The notes below the pieces were generated by a model. The model did no database searches. It was not told where the DNA came from and saw only the letters and a program-made list of their open reading frames with translations. Both the position numbers and the translations under genes were made by a program. Below are positions 5,994 through 50,832 of a stretch of DNA of 64,000 nt, in pieces. Origin of the DNA: a virus (taxonomy: Duplodnaviria; Heunggongvirae; Uroviricota; Caudoviricetes); the IMG/VR virus record IMGVR_UViG_3300028048_000100, positions 33,214-97,213 of that record. One strand, given 5' to 3'. Numbering within the stretch: position 1 is the first letter of the stretch; every line of letters starts with the position of its first letter.

Positions 5994-6554
5994 TTATCTC
6001 CAAAATTTATACGTATAGTCGAACCCTTGAATACTCCAAATCTGCCCATCTTTGTACTTGTATTCGGCCAATTTAAGCAATTGATCTGGATCTCCTTCTA
6101 GTTTCATTCGACTCATGCGATATAACCGCTGATTAGTCGTCTCCTTGTCTAATCCACCGAGTTCTTTGATGTATGGGCCTACCTTGAGATAGGTTAGCAT
6201 CTGGACCCAGTACGAAGCCCCATGATCAATCATATCCTGAACATCCTTACGTCCTGAGTAGACTGCAATGTTCATCCACTTACCCCTCTCTGTGGTCCAG
6301 TCACAATAATATCCGACTATCTTAGCCAATCCATCGTAATCGGCATCTCCGCCCATTAGGCACAGACAAGTACAGGCGCTGTTGGCATCAAGCAAACGAT
6401 ACAACTCTTGTTTGGTTAGTTCTGTACCAACGTCCTCCCAGAGGAACTTACTGTGACAATCCGGACAGTGAATCGGACAGTTGCTGAGGTTGATACATAA
6501 TGTCACCTCATCTGGTATCTCCGAGAATGTTACTTGGTAGTTATAGTATTTCAT
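5994..6554 (-). CDS. nrdG: radical-SAM activase, NrdG-like (anaerobic RNR activating protein family)
   Basis: N-terminal CxxxCxxC (NCPIHCPDCH) followed by GGD (LMGGDADYDG) and 'IAVYSGRK', mirroring E. coli/T4 NrdG. ~186 aa. Its start overlaps the first IQD-family gene stop (ATGA). Confidence 0.5.
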   Translation of the reverse strand: MKYYNYQVTFSEIPDEVTLCINLSNCPIHCPDCHSKFLWEDVGTELTKQELYRLLDANSACTCLCLMGGDADYDGLAKIVGYYCDWTTERGKWMNIAVYSGRKDVQDMIDHGASYWVQMLTYLKVGPYIKELGGLDKETTNQRLYRMSRMKLEGDPDQLLKLAEYKYKDGQIWSIQGFDYTYKFWR

Positions 6555-6838
6555 AAGTATAGTGGTGTTATATTGTAATCTTTAAATTCTTCATAGATTT
6601 TCTGACATGCTAATTGAAACTCTTCACTCGGATCATCTGGATTATGAAGGTTGGGCACATATACATAAAACTCAGATGGGGTGCAATTTGGGAATCTCTT
6701 CTGAATAGCTAAAAATTCGAATCTCCAGTCCCTCATGACTAGGTCGCATCGCAATCGTTTCTGTCTAACGAACGTATCGAACAGCTTGGCTGCGTCAGTC
6801 ACTTGTTTCAATATATCCTCATCGCACGTCTGTATCAT
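6551..6838 (-). CDS. IQD-leader paralog family protein (variant leader MIQTCDEDIL)
   Basis: N-term MIQTCDEDILKQV; overlaps its neighbours. Confidence 0.6.
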   Translation of the reverse strand: MIQTCDEDILKQVTDAAKLFDTFVRQKRLRCDLVMRDWRFEFLAIQKRFPNCTPSEFYVYVPNLHNPDDPSEEFQLACQKIYEEFKDYNITPLYL

Positions 6839-7136
6839 ATAAAAAATATACTTCAGTTATCTTACGGATGTTAAATATATGGCGTCGGATTAAGTCAAAC
6901 ATGAAGCTCTTAGGTAATCCTCTGGGAGTTGCATAAGTCTGCCATTCGAACTGGAACTGACTGTCCGGATTGCGATTGGGAACCAAGTACTGGAACACCA
7001 AGCTACCCCCTGCGCCTTCCCATTTAGACTCAACGTGATCCTTATACTGCATTTCAAACGATCGCTTTAAGTTATCCTCAAACTCGATCTCGTGCATGTT
7101 ACCCTTCACAACCTTTGTGTCATCATCTTGTATCAT
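6819..7136 (-). CDS. IQD-leader paralog family protein
   Basis: N-term MIQDDDTKVVKGN; the promoter-like motif abuts its ATG. Confidence 0.7.
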   Translation of the reverse strand: MIQDDDTKVVKGNMHEIEFEDNLKRSFEMQYKDHVESKWEGAGGSLVFQYLVPNRNPDSQFQFEWQTYATPRGLPKSFMFDLIRRHIFNIRKITEVYFLYDTDVR

Positions 7137-7167
7137 ATATACAAAGTATCTGGGATATCTTTAGTGC
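7137..7167 (-). promoter_or_regulatory. conserved phage promoter-like motif (short variant)
   Basis: The minus strand reads GCACTAAAGATATCccagatactttGTATAT directly fused to ATGATACAAGAT of 6819-7136. Confidence 0.45.
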
Positions 7168-7352
7168 TTCTTCATTGCTTTTGCAAACATAGGTGCTAAA
7201 CTGGCAGGTACAACGACGTAACTAGATGATCCATACTTTCGTCTTCGCTCTTCAATAGCGTTAGCGGTATTTAGTATCTTGTCAAAGAGCTGACGAGACT
7301 GAATCATCTTGTCTTCTCGATCTAGTACTTGTTCATCACTTGCTTGTATCAT
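7161..7352 (-). CDS. IQD-leader paralog family protein (63 aa)
   Basis: N-term MIQASDEQVLDRE. Confidence 0.6.
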   Translation of the reverse strand: MIQASDEQVLDREDKMIQSRQLFDKILNTANAIEERRRKYGSSSYVVVPASLAPMFAKAMKKH

Positions 7353-8002
7353 AGTACAAATGTTTGAGGGCTGTTTGCAATCATTCGTATTCGAGAGATC
7401 TCTTCCACAACAGCAGAGGCATCTTCGTTGTGGTCCAACCCACTAAATCGTGCTGTTAATTCGTCTTCATATCGATCCGATTTGATACTCAATCGCTCAC
7501 CAAGGACTTTGAATTTGACATAGAAGTTGTGTGAGCTCGCATATGATCCGTCCCAAAACTCATGGTCAACCTTTTCTGGGTCCATGATCTCAACGTTGTA
7601 TCCCGAACGAATCACAGTAGACTCGCGTAGGCCCCTCATTCGCGTCTCATCATCAGCCTCATACGTGGTGTACTCATATTTCATATATAAGGGCTCCGGT
7701 AGATGTTCACTAATCCACTTGAGGCCTTTTTCCATATACTCGTTAACGATATTTGCATTCACATATACCGGGTATCCACACATATTATCATACACGTATT
7801 TCGTATACGAGCGACGATTGATGCTTTTGATACTAAACCTCATCATCATCTCGGATATGTGGTTGTCGCGATTGAAGCTTCGATCTAACGCATTTATCTT
7901 ACCGGCGCCTGTGAAGAAGTCGTATATTAAACGAGCCACCTCTCGTCTCATATGTGTACGAGACACTTCAAAAATTACTTTTTCATCACTGTCCTGTATC
8001 AT
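7349..8002 (-). CDS. IQD-leader paralog family protein (217 aa)
   Basis: N-term MIQDSDEKVIFEV; 4-nt overlap with its neighbours. Confidence 0.7.
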   Translation of the reverse strand: MIQDSDEKVIFEVSRTHMRREVARLIYDFFTGAGKINALDRSFNRDNHISEMMMRFSIKSINRRSYTKYVYDNMCGYPVYVNANIVNEYMEKGLKWISEHLPEPLYMKYEYTTYEADDETRMRGLRESTVIRSGYNVEIMDPEKVDHEFWDGSYASSHNFYVKFKVLGERLSIKSDRYEDELTARFSGLDHNEDASAVVEEISRIRMIANSPQTFVL

Positions 8003-8423
8003 CGTATATTGCTTCTAATCCATATTCTACACTATCCATCCACTGTATATTTACACCAAACTGCCTCAGTTTCAATGCTAAGTTGTTCTTAGTCTTCCAG
8101 ACTAATCTCTCTTCTTTTATAACACTCCCATCATCTCGAACACCTACACATACAAGTTGCTCCTCAGTATCTTTTATCATTTCCTCATACTCATACTTAT
8201 AGAACTTGACCGATATCACATGATCGTTGATGTAATAATGATCTCCTCCAGGAGGTACTACGAGTATTGGTTCGCTGAATATGACTCGGAATAGACCAGT
8301 CACTTCAAAGTACTTATCGTTACTATTCCGATTCGCATAGGAATGGTTAAATGCATCCAAAATGATCTGATCCACTAATCGATCAGTCTTACCTATTACT
8401 ATGTCATCATCATCTTGGATCAT
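7986..8423 (-). CDS. IQD-leader paralog family protein
   Basis: N-term MIQDDDDIVIGKT. Confidence 0.7.
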   Translation of the reverse strand: MIQDDDDIVIGKTDRLVDQIILDAFNHSYANRNSNDKYFEVTGLFRVIFSEPILVVPPGGDHYYINDHVISVKFYKYEYEEMIKDTEEQLVCVGVRDDGSVIKEERLVWKTKNNLALKLRQFGVNIQWMDSVEYGLEAIYDDTGQ

Positions 8424-8737
8424 TAGATTGCTTGGTATACGCTTGAAGGAATTGTTAGCTTATGCGGAAAGGTAATCTCTCCTTTATCTCGTTCCAATAA
8501 CAATGAGAACCCAACTAATGCGAACACGTCAGTTACCGTCTCTCTCACTCGTATAACATGCTCTTTCCAAATAGCTTCTCCTTTCTTCCTAATGTAATAT
8601 GTGAAGTCCCAGCAGCCGTTGCATCTATTCACGTAGTTGGTCGCTTTCTGTAACTTACAAGCTTCCCTTACATCCTCGGCGAAATGAGAATAGTTAGTTA
8701 CTTGATCTATTACTATACTATCATCGTCCTGTATCAT
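8423..8737 (-). CDS. IQD-leader paralog family protein
   Basis: N-term MIQDDDSIVIDQV; 1-nt overlap with the downstream gene. Confidence 0.7.
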   Translation of the reverse strand: MIQDDDSIVIDQVTNYSHFAEDVREACKLQKATNYVNRCNGCWDFTYYIRKKGEAIWKEHVIRVRETVTDVFALVGFSLLLERDKGEITFPHKLTIPSSVYQAI

Positions 8738-9095
8738 TGTGTAAGTTTATCTGTATCTTTACAAACATTTCGTCTCTCTCATGTGGAGAAGCGTACTTAG
8801 CCATCTCTATGACTGTCTTATTGTACTCTAACATGTCCTGTATTTCAGACATCCTCTTGCGCACGTATACTTTGAAGTCGTCATTGATGTTCGATTTAAC
8901 CCACTGAGGACTAAAATGGATTGTGTGCGGACGTTTACGACCACCATACGTTATAAGATCAACGCTAAAAGTCCAACTAAGCTCTCTTCCATAATTATAG
9001 CGGATAGCATTCTCAAGCTCTTGATTGAGTAAGCTCTCGAACTCAGCACCTTCTCGTACTTTCTTCTCTACTATGTTATCATCATCTTGTATCAT
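8721..9095 (-). CDS. IQD-leader paralog family protein
   Basis: N-term MIQDDDNIVEKKV. Confidence 0.7.
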   Translation of the reverse strand: MIQDDDNIVEKKVREGAEFESLLNQELENAIRYNYGRELSWTFSVDLITYGGRKRPHTIHFSPQWVKSNINDDFKVYVRKRMSEIQDMLEYNKTVIEMAKYASPHERDEMFVKIQINLHNDTGR

Positions 9096-9517
9096 TTCGG
9101 CATTACTATTCCAACGGGCTTGATGAGATATGACGGTACTTTGAAGTATGGCGGCGTTTTACTTGGTTCTTTTTTATCGAGATTATTTACTATAAAATCT
9201 ACAATACAGGCCGCTAATCTCTTCGGTAATGCAGATTTCCCTAGTTCGGACCATGCTATCTCCATGGTTAATTCCTTTTCAGTAGTGTCATAGTTACAGC
9301 CCCGAAAACGCACAGGCTCGTCAAACACTAATTTGATTTTTGCCTTCACATGCGCCTGATATTTCATATCACCATCAGAGTAGCGTTGGTGTATGATACT
9401 CCGTCCCCGAAGGTCTATTGACTTCTGGTATAACTCTTCACACATATGTTCTAAGTGCCACCGGTTCATTTCCTTGGCAGACTTAGCCATTACTTGCTTG
9501 TCGTCGTCTTGTATCAT
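9092..9517 (-). CDS. IQD-leader paralog family protein
   Basis: N-term MIQDDDKQVMAKS; ATGA coupling. Confidence 0.7.
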   Translation of the reverse strand: MIQDDDKQVMAKSAKEMNRWHLEHMCEELYQKSIDLRGRSIIHQRYSDGDMKYQAHVKAKIKLVFDEPVRFRGCNYDTTEKELTMEIAWSELGKSALPKRLAACIVDFIVNNLDKKEPSKTPPYFKVPSYLIKPVGIVMPK

Positions 9518-10125
9518 TTCACTACGTAGTGTATTGTCTGATACGGTAGTTCTCGTATCGGAGACAGTTTTGTTTCGAATGGGATAGCATCGTTAAAGAG
9601 CACCGATAGAGCAACCTCAGAGTCTGCTATGTTCTCAGTAAGCTTGATAACGAATTGTATGCTATGTACTATATATGGATCAGTCAACTTTAATCCATCG
9701 CTGGTGAGTCCAAACTTATCAGACATGAAGCCTACGATAACACTGCCGGTCTCTTGCTTAAGGTTAGTGTCGTATATCCCAGTCTGATTGACGTTCTTTA
9801 TATCACTATCCACGCGGGTGAGAGTCTCGCCATAGATAGCATTCATGTCGCGAATGAACTCTGCAATCTTACCCACGAGGTTGCGATACACATCGTTCAT
9901 GTAAAATATAGGTTTGCGCTTTTGGGGGTTGGCTACAAACTTATCCGTAAACTTGAGTATGTACCGCCCGACATCACTACCCTCCTGTTGAAAAGCCTCA
10001 ACGCGGTCAAAGTCAAACACACCATCGAACGAAGTCTTGAACTGCTCAGTGATGCGGTGACAAACCCAGTATGGGTTATTCTGGAGATTGCGCTGCTCAA
10101 CAATATTATCGCTATCCTGGATCAT
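9514..10125 (-). CDS. IQD-leader paralog family protein (203 aa)
   Basis: N-term MIQDSDNIVEQRN; the promoter motif abuts its ATG. Confidence 0.7.
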   Translation of the reverse strand: MIQDSDNIVEQRNLQNNPYWVCHRITEQFKTSFDGVFDFDRVEAFQQEGSDVGRYILKFTDKFVANPQKRKPIFYMNDVYRNLVGKIAEFIRDMNAIYGETLTRVDSDIKNVNQTGIYDTNLKQETGSVIVGFMSDKFGLTSDGLKLTDPYIVHSIQFVIKLTENIADSEVALSVLFNDAIPFETKLSPIRELPYQTIHYVVK

Positions 10126-10159
10126 ATATCTATATCCAAAGAATGCAAAAATCTTTAGT
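10126..10159 (-). promoter_or_regulatory. conserved phage promoter-like motif
   Basis: The minus strand reads CACTAAAGATTTTTGcattctttGGATATAGATAT directly fused to ATGATCCAGGAT of 9514-10125. Confidence 0.5.
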
Positions 10160-10575
10160 TATAATCGTGCTTCATAACGGTGCCAAGGATCCAGCACACT
10201 GACTCTTTCGATTAACACGTTGTGCATATCATGTTCTTCCACAGGGTATTTCTCCTGTATCCGTTTTAAGAGCTGTATATAAATTGTGTCGATGAGGCGG
10301 ATATAGTTATCAGCTGAAAACTTGCGGACCTGCTTGTTGAACTGGAATTGTTTCGGGATGTTCACAGTTACATACCCTTTGTCTTCAAATTCTAAATCAG
10401 GATCGCGATCAACAGTATAGTCCGTGATGATAACAACGTCTACCTTCTTGCCCACAATAGCCATTGAGAACACACTTTTCACAGATAGGTCCGCATGTTC
10501 CTGGATCTCTTTGCATATGCGCATGTATTGCTCTAAATTACGCCCTAATACTTCATTGTCGTCATTTTGAATCAT
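10159..10575 (-). CDS. IQD-leader paralog family protein
   Basis: N-term MIQNDDNEVLGRN. Confidence 0.7.
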   Translation of the reverse strand: MIQNDDNEVLGRNLEQYMRICKEIQEHADLSVKSVFSMAIVGKKVDVVIITDYTVDRDPDLEFEDKGYVTVNIPKQFQFNKQVRKFSADNYIRLIDTIYIQLLKRIQEKYPVEEHDMHNVLIERVSVLDPWHRYEARL

Positions 10576-11146
10576 GTGAAACTCCTGTATAACTAAAGTG
10601 GAATGAATCGTTAGTTTCTTTTATGGTGCCGTTCTCAAGATCGGCTTGATCAATGCCGAGCTTATCGAGCATATCTAACATACCAGCGGCATTCACACCA
10701 GCAGTGTCGTAGATATCGCTAAGATGATTTGCTAATAAATGGGTTTTGGTCACCGATGGACCTTGACGCCACAATAACATACTCTTGATAGACCTGAAGT
10801 CCTCTAAGTTGTAGTGACGTTTACTCATATAAGCAACAATTTTATCCAATATCACAGAAGCCCAGGAGGTCTCATTTGCAGATACTGTCCAGTCCATATG
10901 AACCCATAGATCATCTGGTATAGTTACATAGATGCTCTCATCATTCCGATCCTTAGTCTTAAATGATATCTTGATGCTATCATACGGCCCATACATCTCA
11001 CTACGAGGATCGCCGGGATTGCTTCTTTTTACCTCTGTAAGCTTACTCCACAATATCGGCATATACCGCATAATCTCGGTGGTAATCTTGAGGTGATTCT
11101 CATCTACGCCAGATTTTAATATTTTCTCATCCGACTCTTGTATCAT
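10562..11146 (-). CDS. IQD-leader paralog family protein (194 aa)
   Basis: N-term MIQESDEKILKSG. Confidence 0.7.
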   Translation of the reverse strand: MIQESDEKILKSGVDENHLKITTEIMRYMPILWSKLTEVKRSNPGDPRSEMYGPYDSIKISFKTKDRNDESIYVTIPDDLWVHMDWTVSANETSWASVILDKIVAYMSKRHYNLEDFRSIKSMLLWRQGPSVTKTHLLANHLSDIYDTAGVNAAGMLDMLDKLGIDQADLENGTIKETNDSFHFSYTGVSHDSK

Positions 11147-12242: not shown

Positions 12243-12276
12243 ATATCTATATATGCACAAATTAGTAATCTTTAGA
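12243..12276 (-). promoter_or_regulatory. conserved phage promoter-like motif (variant)
   Basis: The minus strand reads CTAAAGATTACtaatttgtgcATATATAGATAT followed by ATGATTATG. Confidence 0.45.
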
Positions 12277-12819
12277 AGTAAACGGCTGATAAATTAGTTC
12301 ATTCTTATGTTTCTTGATGTAATTGAATATGTTTTCTAAGATTTTCTGCTTACCAAACTCTATTGGAAATTCATACTCATCCTCTTTTTTACCAACTGAT
12401 CTGAACGCATCTCTCTGCTTGTTCAGGGCAAAGTTTCGCGTGCTCTCCCGGTCTCTTAGAGACATATTAGTTAGTATTATCCCAAATTTCACCGAGCTTG
12501 GTTCTGTGTAGCCATACCTTGGATCCCTATTGATCCCGCGCACAATCAGGTTAATCATGCAGTCTGAGAATTTGATAGCATTAGTATATGGTCCAAGCAT
12601 TCCACTAGATTGTATTGTTAGTTCAATTTGCCGGCCTATGATCGCATCCAATACTCTAATGGAGAATCCTTCTAACCACTCAGTATAAGTCATATCGGGC
12701 AAGTCTTTAATACCAGATGTATCCGGCCAGCCACTAGACCAGTTACTTTCCCGTTCTTTTGGGATATATAGTGTGTCTTTGGTCTTCTCCAATATTTCGT
12801 TGTCGCTATCTTGTATCAT
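12262..12819 (-). CDS. IQD-leader paralog family protein (185 aa)
   Basis: N-term MIQDSDNEILEKT. Confidence 0.7.
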   Translation of the reverse strand: MIQDSDNEILEKTKDTLYIPKERESNWSSGWPDTSGIKDLPDMTYTEWLEGFSIRVLDAIIGRQIELTIQSSGMLGPYTNAIKFSDCMINLIVRGINRDPRYGYTEPSSVKFGIILTNMSLRDRESTRNFALNKQRDAFRSVGKKEDEYEFPIEFGKQKILENIFNYIKKHKNELIYQPFTSKDY

Positions 12820-13175
12820 CTTACTTTCAGCAAATTTATTTCATACAAGCCATATTTTTCGTATGGATATTCTCGCCCGATTTTTCTGTCTTGTTCGAAT
12901 ATTCGGTCCACTATAAATGCAATAGTGTTAATCACATTCTCTTCTAACGAGAGCTTCATATCATAGTGCCAATCTTCTGGAATGTTAAGTCTGAGAAAAT
13001 CAGGATGTCCATTATAGTAGACTACTCGAAGCTGCTTATATTCAGTCTTACCATACACCTCTAGATCTTTGCCCACAACTCTAACATATGCCGGAAGTTC
13101 TTTGGTGATCTCCCGGTATAATGTTATGCCCGTAACAGATTTGGACAATACTTCACTGTCGTCGTCTTGAATCAT
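12816..13175 (-). CDS. IQD-leader paralog family protein
   Basis: N-term MIQDDDSEVLSKS; ATGA overlap with the upstream gene, checked by hand. Confidence 0.7.
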   Translation of the reverse strand: MIQDDDSEVLSKSVTGITLYREITKELPAYVRVVGKDLEVYGKTEYKQLRVVYYNGHPDFLRLNIPEDWHYDMKLSLEENVINTIAFIVDRIFEQDRKIGREYPYEKYGLYEINLLKVR

Positions 13176-14077
13176 GCTTTTTGGAAGCTTGTGGGTTCCA
13201 TGAGGAGCATATAGCTGTGAGACACCTTGGTTACTTGACGAGCCTCATCCCAAACGTATTTGTGGAAGACGTGAGTCTTGATCACATTCGCGGTGAAGTC
13301 GTGATTCTTAACAGTCGCACCAAGCTCGCGGCCGGTTTTCGTAGTGAGGATCGGTTTGTAGATCCAATAGTTCGCCCAGTGCGTCGGGGCAATAGACTTC
13401 ATTGGAAGGTTGAACATAGCCACCTTAACGTTGTGGCCATCTACGATAGCGTTAGCTGCGAGGTTGCCATCAATGCCATCGGTGTTATTCATCGCACTGT
13501 TGTTGTAGATGTTCGAGGTGAAGTGGATGAGCTTAGTACCGTCGAAGTTGAGCTCCTTGTCTGCGTCTTTAACAGTCACCTCAACTCTGCGATCAGTAAC
13601 GATGAGTTGGTACTTAACAGGGTCGATATCATCGATCTTACGAAGTGAACGAGCGCTCGACATGAGACGATACTTACTAACGATGTCGAAGTTGCCGGTC
13701 TTGATATCGAAATGACGGCTGCGATCTACAATAGTAGTGGCTACCTCAATCTCAAACCAGTTGTCTTTAAGGCGCACGCCCTCATCCAGACGCTCACCCT
13801 TCTTATTGAACTTATACGGGAGAGAGTACTGCGGGCCGTAAGCCGTGGCACCATAGTGAGAGATGTCTGCGTTGTCGAAGATTACATGGCAGCGATATAT
13901 CAGCTTATCGTCGTTGTCGATGACGTTAGCAGATGCGGCTTGAACGATCTGCTTGGTACGGCCCTCACCGATCTCCAAAGCGAATACGTTGGTAGTGAAG
14001 TATGCTCGACGGGTGCCCGAGAACTTTAACATGTCCTCCGCTCTCTCCAAAACGCTGAAATCACTGTCCTGTATCAT
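13172..14077 (-). CDS. IQD-leader paralog family protein (301 aa, largest member)
   Basis: N-term MIQDSDFSVLERA; first gene after the promoter motif. A 3-codon mini-ORF (ATGCAGATATGA) overlaps its start. Confidence 0.7.
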   Translation of the reverse strand: MIQDSDFSVLERAEDMLKFSGTRRAYFTTNVFALEIGEGRTKQIVQAASANVIDNDDKLIYRCHVIFDNADISHYGATAYGPQYSLPYKFNKKGERLDEGVRLKDNWFEIEVATTIVDRSRHFDIKTGNFDIVSKYRLMSSARSLRKIDDIDPVKYQLIVTDRRVEVTVKDADKELNFDGTKLIHFTSNIYNNSAMNNTDGIDGNLAANAIVDGHNVKVAMFNLPMKSIAPTHWANYWIYKPILTTKTGRELGATVKNHDFTANVIKTHVFHKYVWDEARQVTKVSHSYMLLMEPTSFQKA

Positions 14078-14098: not shown

Positions 14099-14132
14099 AT
14101 ATCTATATACAAAGAAAGAGGAAATCTTTAGT
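14099..14132 (-). promoter_or_regulatory. conserved phage promoter-like motif (canonical copy)
   Basis: The minus strand reads GGGAATCACTAAAGATTTCctctttctttGTATATAGATAT ~20 nt upstream of the ATG at 14077. Confidence 0.55.
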
Positions 14133-14163
14133 GATTCCCTCCTGAATTATAGACGTTTTGGTG

Positions 14164-14739
14164 TTATTTCCTTATGACCTTTTCTGCGTGGTCTATTAGG
14201 TATTGATATATATCTTCAGTTGCTATTCTAGCGCTGTGATTTATCACATGTGGAAATACTGAAGTTATTACGTATAACTCAGTTTTTATTTTTCGTCGTT
14301 GCGCGATTGATAGATAAGCAGTATTTTTCGATGCGTTGAATGTGAATCTGCAGATATACGTATCTCCATAACTCACATCGAAAGAGAAATTGTCAGATTC
14401 TTTACCTTTATTTGTAGTGAAGTTTACAGTTAGACCTTGTTTCTTGAGATCTCGTTTTACTTCCCTAGCACCGCCTTGAATGATCGACATTATAACCGAC
14501 ATTTCAAGTCCTTGATTCCCTGTTCCTTCATCACGCGTAACAACTTCGTCTTTAAATTTCACATACATTGGTGATAAGAAATTCCGACTATCGGTTGCAG
14601 GGTTGTACGCTCTCACATCAGGAATCAAGCCCAAATGCTTTAATAATGAATCGCAAAGGGCATACGTTGCGGTCATGGTTTTTGACTTATCAAGAACCTC
14701 AGAGTCATTATCTTGTATTGCTTCCCATAGCGGTCTCAT
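14164..14739 (-). CDS. IQD-leader paralog family protein, long-leader form
   Basis: N-term MRPLWEAIQDNDSEVLDKS. Confidence 0.7.
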   Translation of the reverse strand: MRPLWEAIQDNDSEVLDKSKTMTATYALCDSLLKHLGLIPDVRAYNPATDSRNFLSPMYVKFKDEVVTRDEGTGNQGLEMSVIMSIIQGGAREVKRDLKKQGLTVNFTTNKGKESDNFSFDVSYGDTYICRFTFNASKNTAYLSIAQRRKIKTELYVITSVFPHVINHSARIATEDIYQYLIDHAEKVIRK

Positions 14740-15272: not shown

Positions 15273-15779
15273 TTACACATTATCTTCAATGATCTTGAGT
15301 AATTCCTTGTGTTTGAGAGCATGTCTGGATAGCTCAAATGGCATAAATCTCACGATGACATTATGACCGAATTTGTCTTTAGTCCTCACAACGTCGATGT
15401 GCCAATCTACACCGTGCTCCTCATCCTCATCTCCGAATCTCCAAGACAGTAGGTACTTGACTAACCACACATCCGGATTAACAGCCATCTTTTGTTGATC
15501 GTGCGATTCAATTGCAAATTCCAAATCATGATATTGCTTCTTGATCATTTGGTTCATCTTGCTAATTTCGAGGATAAACTGATTTGTCCTCCAATTGTCA
15601 AAGTACCAGGTTTCATCACCCACTTCTTTAACCCCTATCCGATTGTCTCGAGTTCTACGATCTAGTTTACCAAATACTTTTACAAAGCATTCAGCGAAAA
15701 ATGGATAGAATAGTGCTTCTTTAGATTTGCTATCTACCTCTTTGTCATTATCTTGTATAGCTTCCCAAAGTGGTCTCAT
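15273..15779 (-). CDS. IQD-leader paralog family protein, long-leader form
   Basis: N-term MRPLWEAIQDNDKEVDSKS; ATGA overlap with the upstream gene. Confidence 0.7.
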   Translation of the reverse strand: MRPLWEAIQDNDKEVDSKSKEALFYPFFAECFVKVFGKLDRRTRDNRIGVKEVGDETWYFDNWRTNQFILEISKMNQMIKKQYHDLEFAIESHDQQKMAVNPDVWLVKYLLSWRFGDEDEEHGVDWHIDVVRTKDKFGHNVIVRFMPFELSRHALKHKELLKIIEDNV

Positions 15780-19191: not shown

Positions 19192-19220
19192 TTATTCTAG
19201 ATCAAAATAAATGCATTTAT

Positions 19221-20707: not shown

Positions 20708-21283
20708 ATGAGAACACTTTGGGAAGCCATACAGGATACAGACGATAGAATCAATGCAAAGGCGGATAGTTATTTAGCTATTAGACGGATGGCTGAAGAG
20801 CTGATTGATACATTTGGAAAAGCTACGCATACAATTGATATGTGGAGTGGGGATGGTATTACGTTTGATAAGTACACACGTAATACAAAGGGTAGTGCTA
20901 TGCTAGATCCTGAGTCATACACGACACCTCTTCAAGACGTAAAAGATGAGGTACAAACTTTGATTGATAAATTCAAAGCCGGATTGAAAAAGATCCACGG
21001 CGTCAAGAATATAAAGGATGCATTCACTAATGATAATGACAACCGCAGCACTATTTTCAAGAAATCATCTATATGGGTGATGGTGGAATTTGATAAGAAG
21101 TTAGATATGCCCGGGTTCTCATTTGAATTTGTATTTGAATACACGTCTACAGGTCATAGAAAAGCAATCGACATACGAAATATACCGGAAGGTATTAACT
21201 TCGTTGAGATGTACAGCCGCGTATTCTCAGACAATCAGGATAACGTTAAGCAGTTCAAAAAAATAATCGAAGAATTGGTATGA
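20708..21283 (+). CDS. IQD-leader paralog family protein, long-leader form
   Basis: N-term MRTLWEAIQDTDDRINAKA. Confidence 0.75.
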   Translation: MRTLWEAIQDTDDRINAKADSYLAIRRMAEELIDTFGKATHTIDMWSGDGITFDKYTRNTKGSAMLDPESYTTPLQDVKDEVQTLIDKFKAGLKKIHGVKNIKDAFTNDNDNRSTIFKKSSIWVMVEFDKKLDMPGFSFEFVFEYTSTGHRKAIDIRNIPEGINFVEMYSRVFSDNQDNVKQFKKIIEELV

Positions 21284-21690
21284 GGACTCTTTGGGAAGCG
21301 ATTAACGATAATGACGAAACTGTGATTCATAACAGTAAACTCATCACAGACGTAGACACCCAACGCTATAAGCTGATGAAGCTATTAACGGAGTTCTTTG
21401 GAGTTAAGGAGTTTATACCTCACAAGAACTATCACGGCACGCTGATTATCAAGAGAACTAATCATCTCAAGATAAACGAATTTGCCAAGCAATTAGAGAA
21501 GCAACCTTTTGTTACTATGACCAAAGTAGATCGAGGGGATAAGTTAGCGAGTTATGGTTCAACTCTATATGTGAATAGTAATCTTGGTATATTGTGGTAT
21601 TTCACTTTCAATAAGGTGCTGAATGCCATCACCTCGGTACATGATAGTGAAGGTGTTCACATAAATCTATTTAACTACATGAAACAATGA
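21280..21690 (+). CDS. IQD-leader paralog family protein, long-leader form
   Basis: N-term MRTLWEAINDNDETVIHNS; ATGA coupling. Confidence 0.75.
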   Translation: MRTLWEAINDNDETVIHNSKLITDVDTQRYKLMKLLTEFFGVKEFIPHKNYHGTLIIKRTNHLKINEFAKQLEKQPFVTMTKVDRGDKLASYGSTLYVNSNLGILWYFTFNKVLNAITSVHDSEGVHINLFNYMKQ

Positions 21691-22172
21691 GACCGCTTTG
21701 GGAAGCCATACAAGATAGTGATGATAAGATCCTAAACAGATCAAAAGATATGCTTGGGAAGAATCAGCTGGAGGCGATGATGCTACTAATCATCAACCCA
21801 GTTGTAGAACTGATGCATAAATATCAGTGTAAGTACAATGGCCAAGATGATGCTACTAATGTATTCTCATTTGAAGAAAAGGATCACTACACCAATAACA
21901 TAGACTCAAAAGAGGTTAGAGATGCAGTGATAAAGAGCATCAAATCATCCAACTACAAGGATATCATGAAGATAGATACTAAGTATGTATTGTTCATAGA
22001 TTTCACTGATGAGGATATGCGAAAGAAATACCATAGGTCCGATAAGAAGTACAACGACCAATACGCACTGAACGTGGAAGTTACATTCCATTCAGGCAAG
22101 TGTTTTCTCAACGTATTCGGCAATAACACCTTCATAAGAACCTTCGAAAAATTACTAGATAAGCGAGCATGA
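21687..22172 (+). CDS. IQD-leader paralog family protein, long-leader form
   Basis: N-term MRPLWEAIQDSDDKILNRS. Confidence 0.75.
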   Translation: MRPLWEAIQDSDDKILNRSKDMLGKNQLEAMMLLIINPVVELMHKYQCKYNGQDDATNVFSFEEKDHYTNNIDSKEVRDAVIKSIKSSNYKDIMKIDTKYVLFIDFTDEDMRKKYHRSDKKYNDQYALNVEVTFHSGKCFLNVFGNNTFIRTFEKLLDKRA

Positions 22173-22666
22173 GAACACTCTGGGAAGCCATACAAAGTAG
22201 CGACGATGACATAGCTGCAGCATCAAGCAAAAGCATGGTGCCGTATCGCATAGTAGATATATTCTGCGATGTATTTGCACACATGTATCGTGATAAGGAT
22301 TCAAAATACGATCAAGGAAGTGATTATGTAGCTGGGCGTATACCAGTGTCTAACTATGACAAAATGGATAAGTATAAGACTGAGACTGAGCTGAAGAAGG
22401 ATCTACGTAAGTTCTGTAATAGTGTTCGATCTGAGTTTGCTCCGAAGGTGCTCATCCAGATGAAGACTAAACGAGATCAGATACTCAGAGTGGTAGATCG
22501 AAAAGACTATCGCATAATCATTTCTATTGGTAGCGCCACATATGGGCTAACAGTTCAGTTTGACACAAATCCGACGGCGAAGGGCGAGATTCCGGAGGTT
22601 AATTATATCCGTGTGATCTCGGGCAATCCTGATCTCATAACCGCATTCCATAATAAAGTTAAATGA
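22169..22666 (+). CDS. IQD-leader paralog family protein, long-leader form
   Basis: N-term MRTLWEAIQSSDDDIAAAS. Confidence 0.75.
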   Translation: MRTLWEAIQSSDDDIAAASSKSMVPYRIVDIFCDVFAHMYRDKDSKYDQGSDYVAGRIPVSNYDKMDKYKTETELKKDLRKFCNSVRSEFAPKVLIQMKTKRDQILRVVDRKDYRIIISIGSATYGLTVQFDTNPTAKGEIPEVNYIRVISGNPDLITAFHNKVK

Positions 22667-22667
22667 T

Positions 22668-23144
22668 ATGAGAACTCTTTGGGAAGCCATACAAGACAAC
22701 GATACTAAAATAGATGCGATATATGAAGAGTCTCGTTTGTTGCAAGAGATAGCAGATGGACTCAAGAAGCATTTCAGCAACTACTTGGAAAACGACTCCA
22801 AGATTAAGAAGGTCGGATCTTGGTGCCCACTTGGTAGGGTAGACGATGACTTGTACAACAAGGAAAGTATAAAGGATACCGAGGACTTCATGATTAAAAC
22901 TATCAAACAGATGCACAGGGATATCAAAAAGATACTAAAGAAGACGCTGGTTGATATTGAAACTTCAGTAGACAACTTCGGAGAGAATCACATCAAGCAC
23001 TACAATCTTACATTGTACATATCTGGATGTGAAACAAAGCACCTGATTCAATTTGTATTACACTCTAAGAGAAATAAATTCGGCGAAGAGGTGGAATACA
23101 TTGCTATTTGGACAAAAGATACTGAATTAGCCGATTTGATATGA
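22668..23144 (+). CDS. IQD-leader paralog family protein, long-leader form
   Basis: N-term MRTLWEAIQDNDTKIDAIY. Confidence 0.75.
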   Translation: MRTLWEAIQDNDTKIDAIYEESRLLQEIADGLKKHFSNYLENDSKIKKVGSWCPLGRVDDDLYNKESIKDTEDFMIKTIKQMHRDIKKILKKTLVDIETSVDNFGENHIKHYNLTLYISGCETKHLIQFVLHSKRNKFGEEVEYIAIWTKDTELADLI

Positions 23145-23602
23145 GAACACTCTGGGAAGCAATAAATGATAACGACGATAAGGTACTAGACGGAGCTGAT
23201 CTAGCCATGCTTGGTGCAGATGTTAAACGCGCTATTGAAAGCGTATATGGGCAGCTGTCACCAGATGAGGGTCGCCATGCTCGTCCTAAGTTAGTAGGTG
23301 AAGTAGGAGAGAAATACTTCCAGGATTACGAGTACAGCAAGAAATCCGGTAAGATGACTTATATTCATACTGATGGCACTGTTGTTCGAATCATGAAGAA
23401 TGCCCGAAGCAAAGGCATAGACGTGAAGATGGAGAAGTCAGATCACCACTACAGTGAAGTGGATGAACGCAAATACTATATGACATTCACTAGAAATGAT
23501 GTGAAGATAGAATTAACAATCATCGCCGACTCAACACGTAAATATGGAGTAGATACCATTGGCGTGTGGGCTGATGATGATGTCAAAAAATACCTACAAT
23601 AA
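23141..23602 (+). CDS. IQD-leader paralog family protein, long-leader form
   Basis: N-term MRTLWEAINDNDDKVLDGA. Confidence 0.75.
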   Translation: MRTLWEAINDNDDKVLDGADLAMLGADVKRAIESVYGQLSPDEGRHARPKLVGEVGEKYFQDYEYSKKSGKMTYIHTDGTVVRIMKNARSKGIDVKMEKSDHHYSEVDERKYYMTFTRNDVKIELTIIADSTRKYGVDTIGVWADDDVKKYLQ

Positions 23603-25218: not shown

Positions 25219-25578
25219 TTAGAATATGAGTATATTTTCTACACCGGTTAATTTGATGTAGTTATCACGAATCTCATCTACAAATTGGCTTGCCAAACTC
25301 TCTGTACTTTGAGTGATTGGGAAGCTAATTTTTTTGCTCATGTGATATGGAGCACGAACAAGGCATACACCTGCATTTGGATCACAGAGTACTGCATTGA
25401 CATGGAAGTACTCAGCCATAAACGCCAGGAAACTCGAATGTCTCAATTGAACTGTAGTTTCTGAATGCTCCCTGAGGTTTTTATCTATAGCATCTGTAGC
25501 GAGGTTGATTAGTTTATCTCGCCAATGCAGATCAAAGTACTGTCGACGCTCTATTGCTATGTCACTGTCCTGGATCAT
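25219..25578 (-). CDS. IQD-leader paralog family protein
   Basis: N-term MIQDSDIAIERRQ. Confidence 0.7.
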   Translation of the reverse strand: MIQDSDIAIERRQYFDLHWRDKLINLATDAIDKNLREHSETTVQLRHSSFLAFMAEYFHVNAVLCDPNAGVCLVRAPYHMSKKISFPITQSTESLASQFVDEIRDNYIKLTGVENILIF

Positions 25579-25892
25579 TTAGGCACTACTATCTTTGTTG
25601 TTTTTAGCTTTTCAAATTCTTTGTATGCAAATTCTTTAAACATCTCCAGATCACCATGTCCTCTGTAGTTTTCGTAATCGATCTTTAGTGTGACTTTGTA
25701 CGGGATATTCTTATGTACATCATCATTATATGCATATATAACAATATACAAGTATTTAGGCACATCTATAGAGCATGCCTCAAGATCTTGAAATACACCG
25801 ATCTTACGTTGGACCTCTTCCGCAGCCTTCTCTGCACACAACGTCCAGAATTTATGACCAACCAATATGTCTTGATCAGTGTCTTGTATCAT
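25575..25892 (-). CDS. IQD-leader paralog family protein
   Basis: MIQDTDQDILVGH at an internal Met. The ORF track extends to 25928, which would give ATGA coupling; which start is used is uncertain. Confidence 0.6.
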   Translation of the reverse strand: MIQDTDQDILVGHKFWTLCAEKAAEEVQRKIGVFQDLEACSIDVPKYLYIVIYAYNDDVHKNIPYKVTLKIDYENYRGHGDLEMFKEFAYKEFEKLKTTKIVVPK

Positions 25893-25924
25893 TTCTTTGC
25901 AATTACTTGTTTTCTTGTTTCGTA

Positions 25925-26323
25925 TCAATCTGGTGAGAGTATGAAGGTTTTTGTCGGGTCCTTTATCATTGTTGGATATAAGGACGCAAAGTCATTTACA
26001 CCCTTAAAAACAACCTCGGTGTATGCAAAATCTACGATGTTCTTATTCCAAGGGACATCGGTGATTTTATCGTATAGCTGTTGAACTATTTGGTCAATCA
26101 GAACATCTAGACCAAATGTTACCCAGTTTAGTGGGAATGTGATGGATGCTTGTTTATGCGATGCAGTCGATCGATCACCAAATACCACCTGCTCTTCAAT
26201 CACTAGACCCATGCTGGTTGGGTTCTCGATGATCCAACCATATAGAAACTCACGCAGTTTGTGATCCCGCATCATCAGCAAGTCGCTTTTGCTCAATATG
26301 CCTTCGTCGGTATCTTGTATCAT
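25925..26323 (-). CDS. IQD-leader paralog family protein
   Basis: N-term MIQDTDEGILSKS. Confidence 0.7.
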   Translation of the reverse strand: MIQDTDEGILSKSDLLMMRDHKLREFLYGWIIENPTSMGLVIEEQVVFGDRSTASHKQASITFPLNWVTFGLDVLIDQIVQQLYDKITDVPWNKNIVDFAYTEVVFKGVNDFASLYPTMIKDPTKTFILSPD

Positions 26324-26676
26324 GAGATATTGTATTTAATCACAGAGTTAACACCCATCTCTTTCTTAGCCCGGTAATGTTCCTCCCTGTCTTTAAGGAG
26401 CTTGCGTATTTTGTTTGGATCCGTTGCGTCAAATAAACCACCTTTATAGAAATGGGAGGAGGCCCGGACCACATCTATGTCAAAGTAGTTCAACAGCTTT
26501 ATGGTCCAATCGTCCATTTTGCCGTTCTCAAAATTATGCTCAAGCTCCATCACACGCGATGAGTAGCTAATATTAGCATATTCTACGATTTTTGCCACAG
26601 CCTCCTCACGCATCCGTTCTTGGAAGAGAATACGGCTGTTGTCATCTAATATTTTTGAATCATCATCTTGAATCAT
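26320..26676 (-). CDS. IQD-leader paralog family protein
   Basis: N-term MIQDDDSKILDDN. Confidence 0.7.
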   Translation of the reverse strand: MIQDDDSKILDDNSRILFQERMREEAVAKIVEYANISYSSRVMELEHNFENGKMDDWTIKLLNYFDIDVVRASSHFYKGGLFDATDPNKIRKLLKDREEHYRAKKEMGVNSVIKYNIS

Positions 26677-27011
26677 TAGTCATATTTAAAATCAAACAAC
26701 ACATCAATAGCTCCGCAACCAGCTGCAGCATTCATCACCTGGGTTGCAAATTTTTTAGCGCATTCTTCTTCACTTAGATCAAAATCATAGTAAATATTTT
26801 CTCTCCTGAGGAGTTTGAACCCATTAGAGTAGCAACCTAGAGGAGCCGGAGGATTGGGTACAAAGTATCTCACGTCTGCCGCACTAAATAAGAGATTAGA
26901 CTTCTCATGATGTAGCCGATGGAAGTGAACAGCATGTTCGTATGCCCGCTGGTATATCTTATATTGATCACCTCGAGCATTAGCAATACTTTTGTCCGAA
27001 TCTTGTATCAT
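26676..27011 (-). CDS. IQD-leader paralog family protein
   Basis: N-term MIQDSDKSIANAR; the promoter motif abuts its ATG. Confidence 0.7.
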   Translation of the reverse strand: MIQDSDKSIANARGDQYKIYQRAYEHAVHFHRLHHEKSNLLFSAADVRYFVPNPPAPLGCYSNGFKLLRRENIYYDFDLSEEECAKKFATQVMNAAAGCGAIDVLFDFKYD

Positions 27012-27045
27012 GTATCTATATACAAAGAAAACGAAAAACTTTAGG
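27012..27045 (-). promoter_or_regulatory. conserved phage promoter-like motif
   Basis: The minus strand reads CCTAAAGTTTTTCgttttctttGTATATAGATAC directly fused to ATGATACAAGAT. Confidence 0.5.
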
Positions 27046-27334
27046 AAAGAATTAAACAGAGATTGTTTGTTCGAACTAATTCGTCTATCTCATCGACAGT
27101 CAAGTCAAATTGTTCATTTAGAGATTTAATGATGAAGTCACACATCTTATTAACTAAGTCATCTCCAGCAACTACACTGTACAACTTGTTTTTAATCATA
27201 GACATCTCGAAGGTTATCTTACTCCCAGACCTACGTTCGTCGAGCCGATTGAACTCCACGAAATCCTTAACGATGTTACGCAATGCTAGACCATTACATC
27301 GATCTAAAACCTGTTTTTCACCATCCTGGATCAT
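27041..27334 (-). CDS. IQD-leader paralog family protein (variant MIQDGEKQVL)
   Basis: N-term MIQDGEKQVLDRC. Confidence 0.65.
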   Translation of the reverse strand: MIQDGEKQVLDRCNGLALRNIVKDFVEFNRLDERRSGSKITFEMSMIKNKLYSVVAGDDLVNKMCDFIIKSLNEQFDLTVDEIDELVRTNNLCLILS

Positions 27335-27723
27335 TTGTTTTTATAATAATTCCACAAGTCATCAGTTAGTGGCTGAAATTGGTGATAATCGTACGAATGT
27401 TCTTCTATCTGTCGCATCACCTCCCTAAATACATAATCAGCACACATATCGGCTGATTCTGTTGTGCCATTTAAAAACACTTGGTGACTTTGGTTGAATG
27501 TAATAGTCAAAGGACTCTTACTACGAAATACGACCCATATGTCCACTTGAAATGGAAATCTATCTGTTCGTTGCAGTACGCCTTTTTCAGTCTCACATGG
27601 ATCGAAACGAGAGTCCATGTAACGCTGTGCTATCCAATAATTCGCTTGCATACGAAACGAATCTTTAAGAGTCTCAGCCCAAGCCATGAACTCATTAGGT
27701 ATGTTATCTACGTCTTGGATCAT
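27331..27723 (-). CDS. IQD-leader paralog family protein
   Basis: Internal Met gives MIQDVDNIPNEF. The track ORF begins 7 codons earlier, at 27744. Confidence 0.6.
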   Translation of the reverse strand: MIQDVDNIPNEFMAWAETLKDSFRMQANYWIAQRYMDSRFDPCETEKGVLQRTDRFPFQVDIWVVFRSKSPLTITFNQSHQVFLNGTTESADMCADYVFREVMRQIEEHSYDYHQFQPLTDDLWNYYKNK

Positions 27724-28162
27724 AGTTCCTGAGATACTTTTCAATTATGTTCGTTATAGCTGCACTTTTATCCATCGCATCTCTGTTGATGGATTCAAGT
27801 GTGAACTCATTACTTCTTATTTCAGCAGCCAAATTAGCAGCTTTGACAAAATATTCCAGTTGGCCTTGATTGTACATAGATACTGTTTCACTGAGGGATC
27901 CTGAGTCTATGTATGAGTCGCCGTATTTAGTTGTCACATATTTGGGGTAGTATATATGCCCTCCGAACATGCGCGGATACTCTTTAATTGAACTGAACGT
28001 CTCAAAAACCACACAATCGTATCCAGCCTTGTCCTTGAATATCCATCTATTTCCAGATTCGGTCATCTCATATTCAAAGCCATGGCTGAAAAGGCTCTCA
28101 TTAGTTATCGGTAAGTTATCGATAATGTCCTGTTCAACTTGCTCATCAGTATCTTGTATCAT
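27704..28162 (-). CDS. IQD-leader paralog family protein (152 aa); intact copy of a tandem duplicate
   Basis: N-term MIQDTDEQVEQDIIDNLPITNESLF. The body is homologous to the split ORFs at 28167-28581. Confidence 0.7.
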   Translation of the reverse strand: MIQDTDEQVEQDIIDNLPITNESLFSHGFEYEMTESGNRWIFKDKAGYDCVVFETFSSIKEYPRMFGGHIYYPKYVTTKYGDSYIDSGSLSETVSMYNQGQLEYFVKAANLAAEIRSNEFTLESINRDAMDKSAAITNIIEKYLRNYDPRRR

Positions 28163-28166
28163 AACG

Positions 28167-28581
28167 TCACCCTTTCCAAAGGTAATCGGTTATTTCCTCG
28201 TTTAACTCCTTACTCTCTTGGGCAATGTACATTCTCAGTTTAGCAGCACGATGAGCTAATCTGATAAAACGCTCAAGTTGACCCTTCGTATATAAGTATG
28301 TTTTTCTAGTGTCTGATTTGACTGACCCTGGGCCTATCGAATGCTGCAACTGAGGGTAGGGGGATATTACATACGAGTTTACGTGGATAACCGTTTATCA
28401 AGCTGTCTCGTATGAGAAGTACATTCTCGTACCCAGATACATCTTTATAGACCCAACAGTTTTCAGGATTGGTGTTTGATATTCCTTTAAAATACAACCC
28501 ATTCCTGAAAAGATCGGCGTTTGTTATAGGCAGGTTATCTATAACATCTTTTTCCACTTGTTCATCACTTGCTTGTATCAT
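28167..28581 (-). pseudogene. frameshifted tandem duplicate of the 27704-28162 gene (IQD-leader family)
   Basis: ORF 28306-28581 (MIQASDEQVEKDVIDNLPITNADLF…GYPRKL) aligns to the N-terminal half of 27704-28162. ORF 28167-28349, in another frame (…GQLERFIRLAHRAAKLR), aligns to the C-terminal half (GQLEYFVKAANLAAEIR). The two frames overlap at 28306-28349. Confidence 0.5.
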
Positions 28582-28934
28582 AACACCACCTCCGTTACTA
28601 ATACCCTCATCTTACCACGCATATGACTATATCCTCGATTGATTCCACGGACATCGTATTGTCTGTTATATCGAGACCGAACATGCACTGTTTTGCCTAT
28701 GAGTACTATATCTTTTCTCGACATCCCTATAGGAGTCTCGTCAAAAATCACATCATCAGGATCCGCGTACACAGCCCAGGCTATAGGTGTCGATTGGAGA
28801 TCTACATATTGCTTATCTGATGCAAGCATATCCACAACCTCCATACCCAAGCTGTCGCGCAAGAACTCTTCAGTGAGGCGAAACATCTTACTATCTCGTT
28901 CTTCTAATATGTCCTTGTCATTTTGCTGAATCAT
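28578..28934 (-). CDS. IQD-leader paralog family protein (variant MIQQNDKDIL)
   Basis: N-term MIQQNDKDILEER. Confidence 0.65.
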   Translation of the reverse strand: MIQQNDKDILEERDSKMFRLTEEFLRDSLGMEVVDMLASDKQYVDLQSTPIAWAVYADPDDVIFDETPIGMSRKDIVLIGKTVHVRSRYNRQYDVRGINRGYSHMRGKMRVLVTEVVL

Positions 28935-29365
28935 ATCATATATCGTTCGCCGCTTTTAAGACGTGCCTTGACTGAGTAGTTTCCCAAATCAGTGTCATAA
29001 CCCCATTCCATAATGAAGTCCATGATTTTCTGAAAGTAGAACTCTGTGAGTGCATTAAGTTCTAATTTGTACATCTTGCGCTCCCGGTTAGTGTCTTGGA
29101 ATGAGATCTTGAACTGGAGAGGGCCGGTAATGTGGTGAAGCTCTTCATCAGTGATGCGAATCCCAGCATACTTATAGTTGACGTGATAGGTGATCTTGAC
29201 TTTTAGAGGCCATTTGCACCCACGTTTAGTTATGCCCCACTTGACATCGTCTTTAGTATTGTAAAACGACCCGAGTTCGCTTTTCAGTTGGCGTTTAAAG
29301 TTCTTGTAACCTTTCAATGCGCTAGCTGAATCTTTCAATAAGATATTGTCGTCTCCGGTAATCAT
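28931..29365 (-). CDS. IQD-leader paralog family protein (variant MITGDDNILL)
   Basis: N-term MITGDDNILLKDS; ATGA overlap with the upstream gene. Confidence 0.6.
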   Translation of the reverse strand: MITGDDNILLKDSASALKGYKNFKRQLKSELGSFYNTKDDVKWGITKRGCKWPLKVKITYHVNYKYAGIRITDEELHHITGPLQFKISFQDTNRERKMYKLELNALTEFYFQKIMDFIMEWGYDTDLGNYSVKARLKSGERYMI

Positions 29366-30139: not shown

Positions 30140-30173
30140 ATATCTATATACAAACAAAAAGGAAATCTTTAGT
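30140..30173 (-). promoter_or_regulatory. conserved phage promoter-like motif (canonical copy)
   Basis: The minus strand reads GGGAATCACTAAAGATTTCctttttgtttGTATATAGATAT. Confidence 0.55.
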
Positions 30174-30181
30174 GATTCCCT

Positions 30182-50503: not shown

Positions 50504-50534
50504 AAAAGAGGAGCTTAAAACTCCTCTTTTATTA
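50504..50534. terminator. bidirectional rho-independent terminator
   Basis: aaaagaggag-cttaaaa-ctcctctttt, flanked by A/T runs, between convergent genes. Confidence 0.65.
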
Positions 50535-50822: not shown

Positions 50823-50832
50823 AGCTATTCGT

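Follow-up and report, generated by a model that had tools for sequence, protein, structure and literature searches.

Candidate T4-type cleavable leaders and a second conserved N-terminal box on small proteins of a distant jumbo T4-like phage

Results

Leaders and the box that follows them

The 64,000 nucleotides analysed here (the window; positions 33,214 to 97,213 of IMG/VR record IMGVR_UViG_3300028048_000100) are part of a novel jumbo T4-like phage and encode several phage proteins. In addition, 36 of the 93 genes called in the window carry a common N-terminal tag of about 10 residues and share little else. Six of them form a tandem array between the genes for a baseplate-hub-like and a neck-like protein: Each of the six proteins begins with a leader of the MRTLWE type, and a conserved box of the type I-Q-D follows. 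The original prediction for this DNA had taken such starts as a general motif that resembles the sites cut by the T4 prohead protease.

A start of the form M-[RK]-[DSTPG]-L is present in 17 of the 93 gene calls, and in 18 if the alternative, ATGA-overlapping start at 60973 is used, but in only 5 of 1279 open reading frames (ORFs) from unrelated viral contigs that served as background. The original count of at least 18 such proteins is confirmed. That each of them has L/I-x-E near its N-terminus holds for 16 of the 18 M-[RK]-x-L proteins, in which (L/I)-x-E lies in the first 10 residues, the leader has 6-10 residues and the residue right after the leader Glu is A, S or Q. The exceptions are 16408 (MRDLKDFLFG), which has no Glu, and the N-terminus of 43300 (MRSLLTYLE), with Tyr at P3, the third residue before the predicted cut. 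Five leaders have 10 residues (MK[DSG]LxExLxE; genes 38831, 50532, 50833, 52064 and 52411); the next residue is S, A or Q, and a clear box is absent. The other 11 have 6-9 residues and end in LWE or IYE. The pattern ^M[KR].[LIMFYV].[DE].[LI].E, which describes the capsid-targeting sequence (CTS) of T4, MKTYQEFIAE (PMC8442874), matches 5 of the 93 window genes and none of the 1279 background ORFs. The proposed likeness to the T4 CTS was supported: The leaders are colinear with MKTYQEFIAE, and a read-out of the T4 genome gave the same P3-P1-P1' pattern in gp24 (MAKINELLRE/S; the slash marks the cut), gp22 (MLKEQLIAE/A), gp23 (...FLTE/AEIGG) and gp67 (MEGLIE/AIKSNDLV), with LRE/S, IAE/A, LTE/A and LIE/A at the sites. 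The claim of generality, on the other hand, did not hold. (L/I)xE within residues 2-12 occurs in 25 of the 93 genes as compared to 9.5% for internal windows of equal size, counts that are non-independent owing to paralogy, but this excess comes entirely from the tag families, with 4 of 53 among the other genes. The enrichment is therefore a feature of two or three families and not of the whole proteome.

The second conserved element, I-Q-D-x-D-x-x-(V/I), stands after the predicted cut in 11 leader proteins, and 25 further genes, which form three minus-strand arrays, have the box directly after Met. None of these 25 genes has an in-frame leader upstream: The leaderless paralogues start at the leader/box junction, with Met in place of the Ala at P1', the residue after the cut. 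Short MIQD forms, which had been likened to the start left after removal of a leader, are more numerous than had been noticed. Over 35 aligned tags, the box has I in 35, Q in 31, D at its position 3 in 26, D at position 5 in 34, V or I at position 8 in 33 and L at position 9 in 17.

With the tag removed, BLAST found similarity in only one pair among the 36 proteins, and searches of all 36 against the Pfam and PHROG family libraries gave no match. The remainders of the nine MR[TP]LWEAI[QN][DS]xD proteins (the six tandem ones and 14164, 15273 and 38244) are 15-24% identical in a MAFFT alignment. The leader is found on differing architectures, yet the MRTLWEA set is one diverged family, and its conservation runs past the cut. 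The median isoelectric point (pI) is 6.6 for the leader forms and 5.6 for the leaderless forms, and pI values above 8 were obtained for 6 of 35 proteins. For the long form, AlphaFold2 run on the alignment (gene 23141..23602) gave a model with a pLDDT of 78.7 and a pTM of 0.73, in which the tag is predicted to begin a long helix (residues 4-36); one strand, another helix and an antiparallel sheet of four strands come after it. The model of the short form is poor (pLDDT 59); its first 60 residues, predicted with confidence, would form a coil (residues 1-5) and then helices.

Relatives were drawn from metagenomes and from a library of 1.84 billion proteins. The long-form family is rare: Among the 1.84 billion representatives, hmmsearch found 25 clusters at E <= 1e-3, several of them from the same phage. 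A tblastn search with one family member against deposited phage genomes gave no match, and IMG/VR, searched for MIQD arrays, yielded 116 isolated hits that look like chance matches, none of them an array. The relatives begin with MRPLYE/AIQDNDEKL, MRSLYDSILE/AIQDSDERV, MRTLLEVIYE/AIQDNDSKV or MKSLSDKLNE/AIHDSDDEV, and further ones with MRSLYE/SILSTDTEV, MKTLYSVLE/SITDSDEE, MRSLLDIIYE/SISDSDSGV or MKPLMQVFE/SINMDDDQV. The leaders of 16 variants found in other metagenomic phages have 6-11 residues (0-4 extra), and their Glu is invariant and always followed by [ASG]-I; the first module always ends with hydrophobic-x-Glu, and [ASG]-Ile and the box come next. One relative (L006) has an identical MRTLWEAIQD and no other detectable protein similarity to the window. 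With bodies that, but for one pair, have no BLAST similarity to each other, and with MRTLWEAIQD as the only detectable similarity of L006, the tag appears to be portable.

A prohead protease gene and its neighbours

The prohead protease gene that the original prediction proposed to look for is present in the window and encodes a protein of the T4 gp21 type (see Table 1). In tblastn searches it matched the 'prohead core scaffolding protein and protease' of phage PTm1 (2e-13), gp21 of P-SSM2 and gp21-type proteases of Chryseobacterium phages and cyanophages, with Prevotella Lak phages among the best matches. The His motif GELEHP and the Ser motif ISLRA align with GELNHP and VSSRG of T4 gp21; these catalytic motifs are conserved. 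A comparison of the protease with solved structures by sequence gave no match, and the same query found no relatives in IMG/VR. Unlike in T4, scaffold and major capsid genes do not come next after the protease gene; a gene for the major capsid protein was found neither in the window nor in the 10 kb upstream of it (L004) nor beside the protease gene. The ORF at 55292-55600 (+), which was missed by longest-ORF calling, encodes a Phage_ProQ_C_like domain (PF24203, 2.6e-8) and directly follows a cassette copy downstream of the protease gene.

Four of the five genes with a 10-residue leader lie in a cluster (50532-52680) that diverges from the adjacent protease unit. Moreover, there are internal copies of the leader at domain junctions of the proteins 43300 and 51446, and xE/S sites are clustered in 43300, 50833 and 51446. 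Internal leader copies beside runs of xE/S are as expected of core proteins that are cut into fragments. The protein encoded at 51446-52051 (-) in the protease-adjacent cluster consists of a DUF5856 domain (PF19174, 3.7e-19), the internal leader copy and a second domain; the PHROG that it matches is phrog_858, annotated as a starvation-inducible transcriptional regulator.

Table 1. Leader genes, box genes and other features of the window (a slash marks the predicted cut after Glu)
Feature	Position	Strand	Remarks
Leader+box gene 1 of six-gene tandem array, MRTLWE/AIQDTDDRI	20708..21283	+	
Leader+box gene 2, MRTLWE/AINDNDETV	21280..21690	+	ATGA overlap with preceding gene
Leader+box gene 3, MRPLWE/AIQDSDDKI	21687..22172	+	
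Leader+box gene 4, MRTLWE/AIQSSDDDI	22169..22666	+	
Leader+box gene 5, MRTLWE/AIQDNDTKI	22668..23144	+	
Leader+box gene 6, MRTLWE/AINDNDDKV	23141..23602	+	AlphaFold2-modelled
Leader+box gene, MRPLWE/AIQDNDSEV	14164..14739	-	last before cassette 14100-14135
Leader+box gene, MRPLWE/AIQDNDKEV	15273..15779	-	downstream of terminase gene, same strand
Leader+box gene, MRTLWE/AIQDNDDVI	38244..38834	-	last gene of unit 39229 (RimK-like) - 38831 - 38244
Variant leader+box gene, MRSLLDIYE/AIHMDDNDVL	61362..61943	-	
Variant leader gene, MRSLFEIYE/AMINE/S	59873..60973	-	likely start 60973, ATGA overlap with 60970-61365
10-residue T4-CTS-like leader, MKSLSEYLTE/AID	38831..39229	-	
10-residue leader, MKGLSEKLNE/SL	50532..50822	-	C-terminal segment Gly-rich, hydrophobic
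10-residue leader, MKDLKDMLIE/SL	50833..51441	-	acidic; internal IRE/S and VNE/S sites, residues 104-108
10-residue leader, MKDLGEMLKE/QL	52064..52408	-	
10-residue leader, MKSLEETLKE/SL	52411..52680	-	first gene of cluster diverging from protease unit
Internal leader copy, MRSLVEFLNE/S	51644..51673	-	residues 127-136 of 51446-52051, after DUF5856 domain
Internal leader copy, MKDLKDFLKE/S	43765..43794	-	residues 60-69 of 43300-43971; then LVE/S, HIE/S, NVE/S
Array of 11 leaderless box genes, MIQ[D]xDxx[VI]	6551..11146	-	starts 6838, 7136, 7352, 8002, 8423, 8737, 9095, 9517, 10125, 10575, 11146
Array of 3 leaderless box genes	12262..14077	-	12262-12819, 12816-13175, 13172-14077; headed by cassette 14100-14135
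Array of 11 leaderless box genes	25219..29365	-	25219, 25575, 25925, 26320, 26676, 27041, 27331, 27704, 28306, 28578, 28931
T4 gp21-type prohead (head maturation) protease, C-terminal extension	54133..55206	+	phrog_207 'head maturation protease', 1.6e-13
T4-type large terminase	17203-19191	-	31% identical to that of PTm1
Baseplate-hub-like protein	19146-20318	+	plus-strand block
Neck / head-closure-like protein	23602-25218	+	plus-strand block
Sigma-70-family factor, phage-encoded	48057-49268	+	phrog_351, 1.1e-24
tRNA-Arg, anticodon TCT (reads AGA)	5376-5449	-	
Stem-loop + TTTGTATATAGATA cassette	14100..14135	-	divides last leader gene (upstream) from first leaderless gene (downstream)
Further cassette copies	30141-30176; 55236-55271	-; +	
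Partial cassette copies	10127-10162; 27013-27026; 7155-7168	-; -; -	

Gene order, upstream motifs and lineage

The leader genes are associated with virion genes, i. e. those for the terminase, the hub-like and neck-like proteins and the protease. On one strand, the hub-like gene is followed by 20281, the six leader genes and the neck-like gene; on the other, the terminase gene is followed by 16408, 15776, 15273, 14739 and 14164. The first gene of the tandem array is preceded by a hairpin and TTATTATATAGTTAT. More generally, upstream motifs of the TTATTATAT type precede the blocks of leader and morphogenesis genes, and the leaderless arrays are preceded by cassettes of a stem-loop and TTTGTATATAGATA; near the array 25219..29365, TTTGTATATAGATA is present at 27013 and 30141. 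A cassette consists of an 8-bp stem-loop (AGGGAATC-ACTAAA-GATTTCCT), a T-run and then TTTGTATATAGATAT, and every copy heads an array of small genes. The cassette resembles a terminator combined with a promoter, as in the PeSL elements known in T4-like phages (PMC4122927). The T4 late promoter TATAAATA was rejected as the promoter type in use, with one copy in the window at 196-203.

The unit that runs into the leader genes 38831 and 38244 is headed by a gene (39229-40896, -) for a protein of 555 residues with a RimK-like ATP-grasp domain (PF08443, 2e-20), which could be a peptide ligase that acts on head or cargo proteins. Helicases, a single-stranded DNA-binding protein (SSB), an RNase H-like exonuclease and a sigma factor are also encoded in the window, and an ORF at 62845-64000 (+) runs past its end (at least 385 residues, with a weak match to an S1 RNA-binding domain under the Pfam cut-off).

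The lineage is very distant from T4: Identity of the large terminase is 31% with its counterpart in the jumbo Tenacibaculum phage PTm1, 28% with that of Sphingomonas phage PAU, and lower with those of T4-like phages. In a relative (L002, 780-4259), the large terminase gene is interrupted by an ORF of 319 residues (1393-2352), possibly that of a mobile element or one encoded in an intron. An 8 kb megablast search against 50,697 deposited phage genomes gave 0 nucleotide matches; identical sequence is present in a contig from a JGI metagenome and also in Logan assemblies. Shine-Dalgarno sequences were not found at the window genes, ATGA stop/start overlaps are common, and in codons 2-12 of the window genes the third position is A in 37% as compared to 24% in gene bodies. 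These features, together with the tblastn matches of the protease, including those to Prevotella Lak phages, suggest a host of the Bacteroidota type. AGA, the codon read by the phage tRNA-Arg, encodes Arg in 12 of 15 MR.LWEA leaders, and its share of Arg codons is 56% in codons 2-12 of other genes and 19% in gene bodies.

Discussion

We consider it somewhat better than an even case that the leader is a T4-type propeptide that targets proteins to the prohead core and would be cut after Glu by the gp21-type protease, cleavage and packaging being read from sequence features. This cleavable-leader model is favoured by the Glu that is invariant despite the variable length upstream of it, by the leaderless paralogues that begin at the junction, by the internal copies, and by the protease gene. 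The place of the leader genes among those for the terminase, the hub-like and neck-like proteins and the protease would be indirect evidence for packaging. According to the model, the first module, M-(R/K)-x-L-...-(L/I/V)-x-E, would have had an ancestral length of 10 residues and would have been shortened to 6 in MRTLWE. It would bring a protein into the assembling prohead core, and its removal after Glu by the protease would create a new N-terminus, A/S-I-.... The proteins of the acidic cluster 50532-52680 may be core or scaffold-like proteins, and those of the MRTLWEA family internal 'cargo' proteins that are delivered with the DNA. The second module, I-Q-D-x-D-x-x-V/I-(L), would be an element of its own that stays on the protein and opens the N-terminal helix in a family of fast-evolving small alpha+beta proteins: Its 11 members with a leader are predicted to be packaged, and the 25 without a leader to be made only inside the infected cell. 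The division between TTATTATAT-type motifs and cassettes fits a late expression of the packaged and a separately regulated expression of the non-packaged proteins, with timing predicted from the motifs.

What is known of T4 provides the frame for this model. T4 gp21 cuts after Glu in L/I-X-E, and the first bond mapped is Glu-Ala; targeting depends on positions 4 and 7 of the CTS, processing on positions 8 and 10 (PMC9026906). In T-even phages, CTS-like leaders are known on variable internal proteins (PMC3012670, PMC9026906). As in IPI, IPII, IPIII and Alt of T4, a short N-terminal leader of the form M-K-x-hydrophobic-x-E-x-(I/L)-x-E is found here on proteins with little other similarity, with L/I at P3, E at P1 and A/S at P1', with a gp21-type protease in the same genome, and with the leader as a conserved part of the protein (PMC3012670, PMC9026906, PMC8442874). 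The putative system differs from that of T4 by the second conserved box after the cut, by cargo that is not basic, and by many more members. The core and shell proteins gp67, gp68, gp22, gp24 and gp23 of T4, with their propeptides, have a counterpart in the small acidic leader proteins by the protease gene that have several xE/S/A sites (50532-52680). The starts of T4 gp67, MEGLIE/AIKSNDLV, and of PTm1 ORF-308, MKKRTLAE/AIVE, resemble MRTLWE/AIQDND of the window at the motif level only. Both are small acidic proteins (ORF-308, L028 26653-26847; gene 67, L145 4782-5024), and their starts MKKRTLAEAIVEG and MEGLIEAIKSNDLV resemble MRTLWEAIQDND. Homology of the tag to gp67 was rejected: With a hidden Markov model (HMM) of five gp67 N-termini, the best window hit had E = 1.4, no better than background, and there was no PHROG hit. 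Large diverged families of paralogues, proposed or shown to be in the head, are also known in giant phages, e. g. family B of SPN3US with 20 members (PMC5694885) and the inner-body proteins of phiKZ, and there, too, a gp21-related protease cuts after Glu (PMC5694885, PMC9026906). However, the propeptides of these phages mostly have more than 100 residues and the motif A/S-x-E, and neither a short invariant N-terminal box nor a leaderless sister set has been described for their families.

Several observations count against the cleavable-leader model. The residues that are best conserved (I, Q, D5 and V8) are downstream of the proposed cut, and the leaderless genes have them, too; a T4-type CTS does not explain them. 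The commonest leader, MRTLWE, has 6 residues and is shorter than any T4 propeptide (10-19 residues, PMC9026906). Most of the tagged proteins have an acidic to neutral pI and lack the "highly basic" trait of the T4 internal proteins. The depletion of (L/I)xE[AS] in the bodies of the tagged proteins is a weak trend, with 1 observed and 4.5 expected. In a relative (L001), the syntenic gene has a box-like INEDD without a preceding Glu, and where T4 gp67 has the Glu in a similar motif, its homologues from other T4-like phages carry D or K, so an 'xxEAI' helix start need not be a cleavage site. Finally, the two classes of upstream motifs resemble each other, and the TTATTATAT type stands before replication genes, too, so that an early/late split would be a tentative reading. 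As a whole, the idea of a T4-type leader put forward in the original prediction is supported in part: The leaders, the protease and the junction speak for it, the lack of generality and of basic cargo against it.

The conservation of the box bears on an alternative that we regard as unlikely, if still deserving attention: Leader and box might together form an uncleaved docking helix, i. e. a short linear motif that binds the same partner in all cases (for example, a portal or prohead core protein, an enzyme of the phage or a host hub protein), with the body providing specificity and (L/I)xE being part of an amphipathic helix. The box and not the leader is the most conserved part, it is common to 36 proteins, a long helix begins with the tag in the AlphaFold2 model, and I1, D5 and V8/L9 would lie on one face of it. 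Homologues of gp67 keep the start 'I-x-AI-x-S-x-DLV' even with D or K for Glu, and MRTLWEAIQD has Asp at position 10, which in the T4 CTS blocks processing but not targeting (PMC9026906). However, a docking helix leaves it unexplained why Glu is invariant amid variable leader lengths, why precisely the stretch ahead of the junction is missing from 25 paralogues, why internal leader copies stand beside xE/S runs, and why four leader genes flank the protease gene. It seems improbable that the proteins are just an ordinary family of diverged paralogues, in which the N-terminus evolves slowly for structural reasons, as a helix cap or fold nucleus, and the likeness to T4 propeptides is coincidental. 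The long forms do share weak body motifs and one predicted fold, hmmsearch gives full-length relatives (the 25 hits), and the gp67 HMM does not raise the window proteins above background. But plain paralogy would have to account for the extreme contrast between a near-invariant tag of 10-12 residues and bodies that cannot be aligned, for the 10-residue leader on clearly different proteins (with a DUF5856 domain, with a Gly-zipper, or acidic and helical), and for the exact T4-CTS pattern that is absent from the background ORFs.

Conservation at the level of the nucleic acid, as a translation-initiation element, a recombination site or a result of AT-rich codon bias, is largely refuted, and we give it hardly any credence. 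A-rich synonyms are indeed favoured in the tag (GAA in 15/15, ATA in 13/15 and AGA in 12/15), and the ATGA overlap demands a second codon that begins with A. However, the same preference is seen in codons 2-12 of the non-family genes, which do not have the motif, and the synonymous codons of the tag vary freely, with 4 codons for Leu, 4 for Ala, 2-3 for Ile and a 7/8 split for Asp12; moreover, the tag is also found inside proteins, and the tags of relatives contain amino-acid insertions. Thus, it is the peptide that is conserved, and the tag is neither a DNA repeat nor an effect of composition; codon bias, which had been raised as a cause that would refute the motif, does not explain it.

The cleavable-leader model may be extended to the box, in a version that we consider rather unlikely: The box might be a second, retained address label on at least 36 hypervariable small effectors in 64 kb that have one common partner, a host hub or a phage machine. 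These effectors would be deployed in two ways, either preloaded into the capsid by the cleavable leader and injected with the DNA, or synthesized without a leader after infection. If this were true, the phage would have a modular system of a 'tag plus variable warhead' with a natural on/off switch for packaging.

We have not found a description in the open-access literature of the leader logic in this distant lineage, of the second, retained box, of a family that accounts for 36 of 93 genes, or of such a family in two matching sets, with and without a leader. Should the leaders act like those of T4, a capsid-targeting peptide of 10 residues with cleavage by gp21 would long predate the T-even phages, occur well beyond them, and reach jumbo phages of probably Bacteroidota hosts. 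Work that turns T4 into a delivery vehicle already relies on the rules of capsid loading, and the leaders of 6, 9, 10 and 11 residues, the paralogues with and without a leader and the dozens of cargo proteins would provide a natural series for these rules. The retained box, on more than a third of the genes of this region, may mark a large set of proteins for host takeover or anti-defence.

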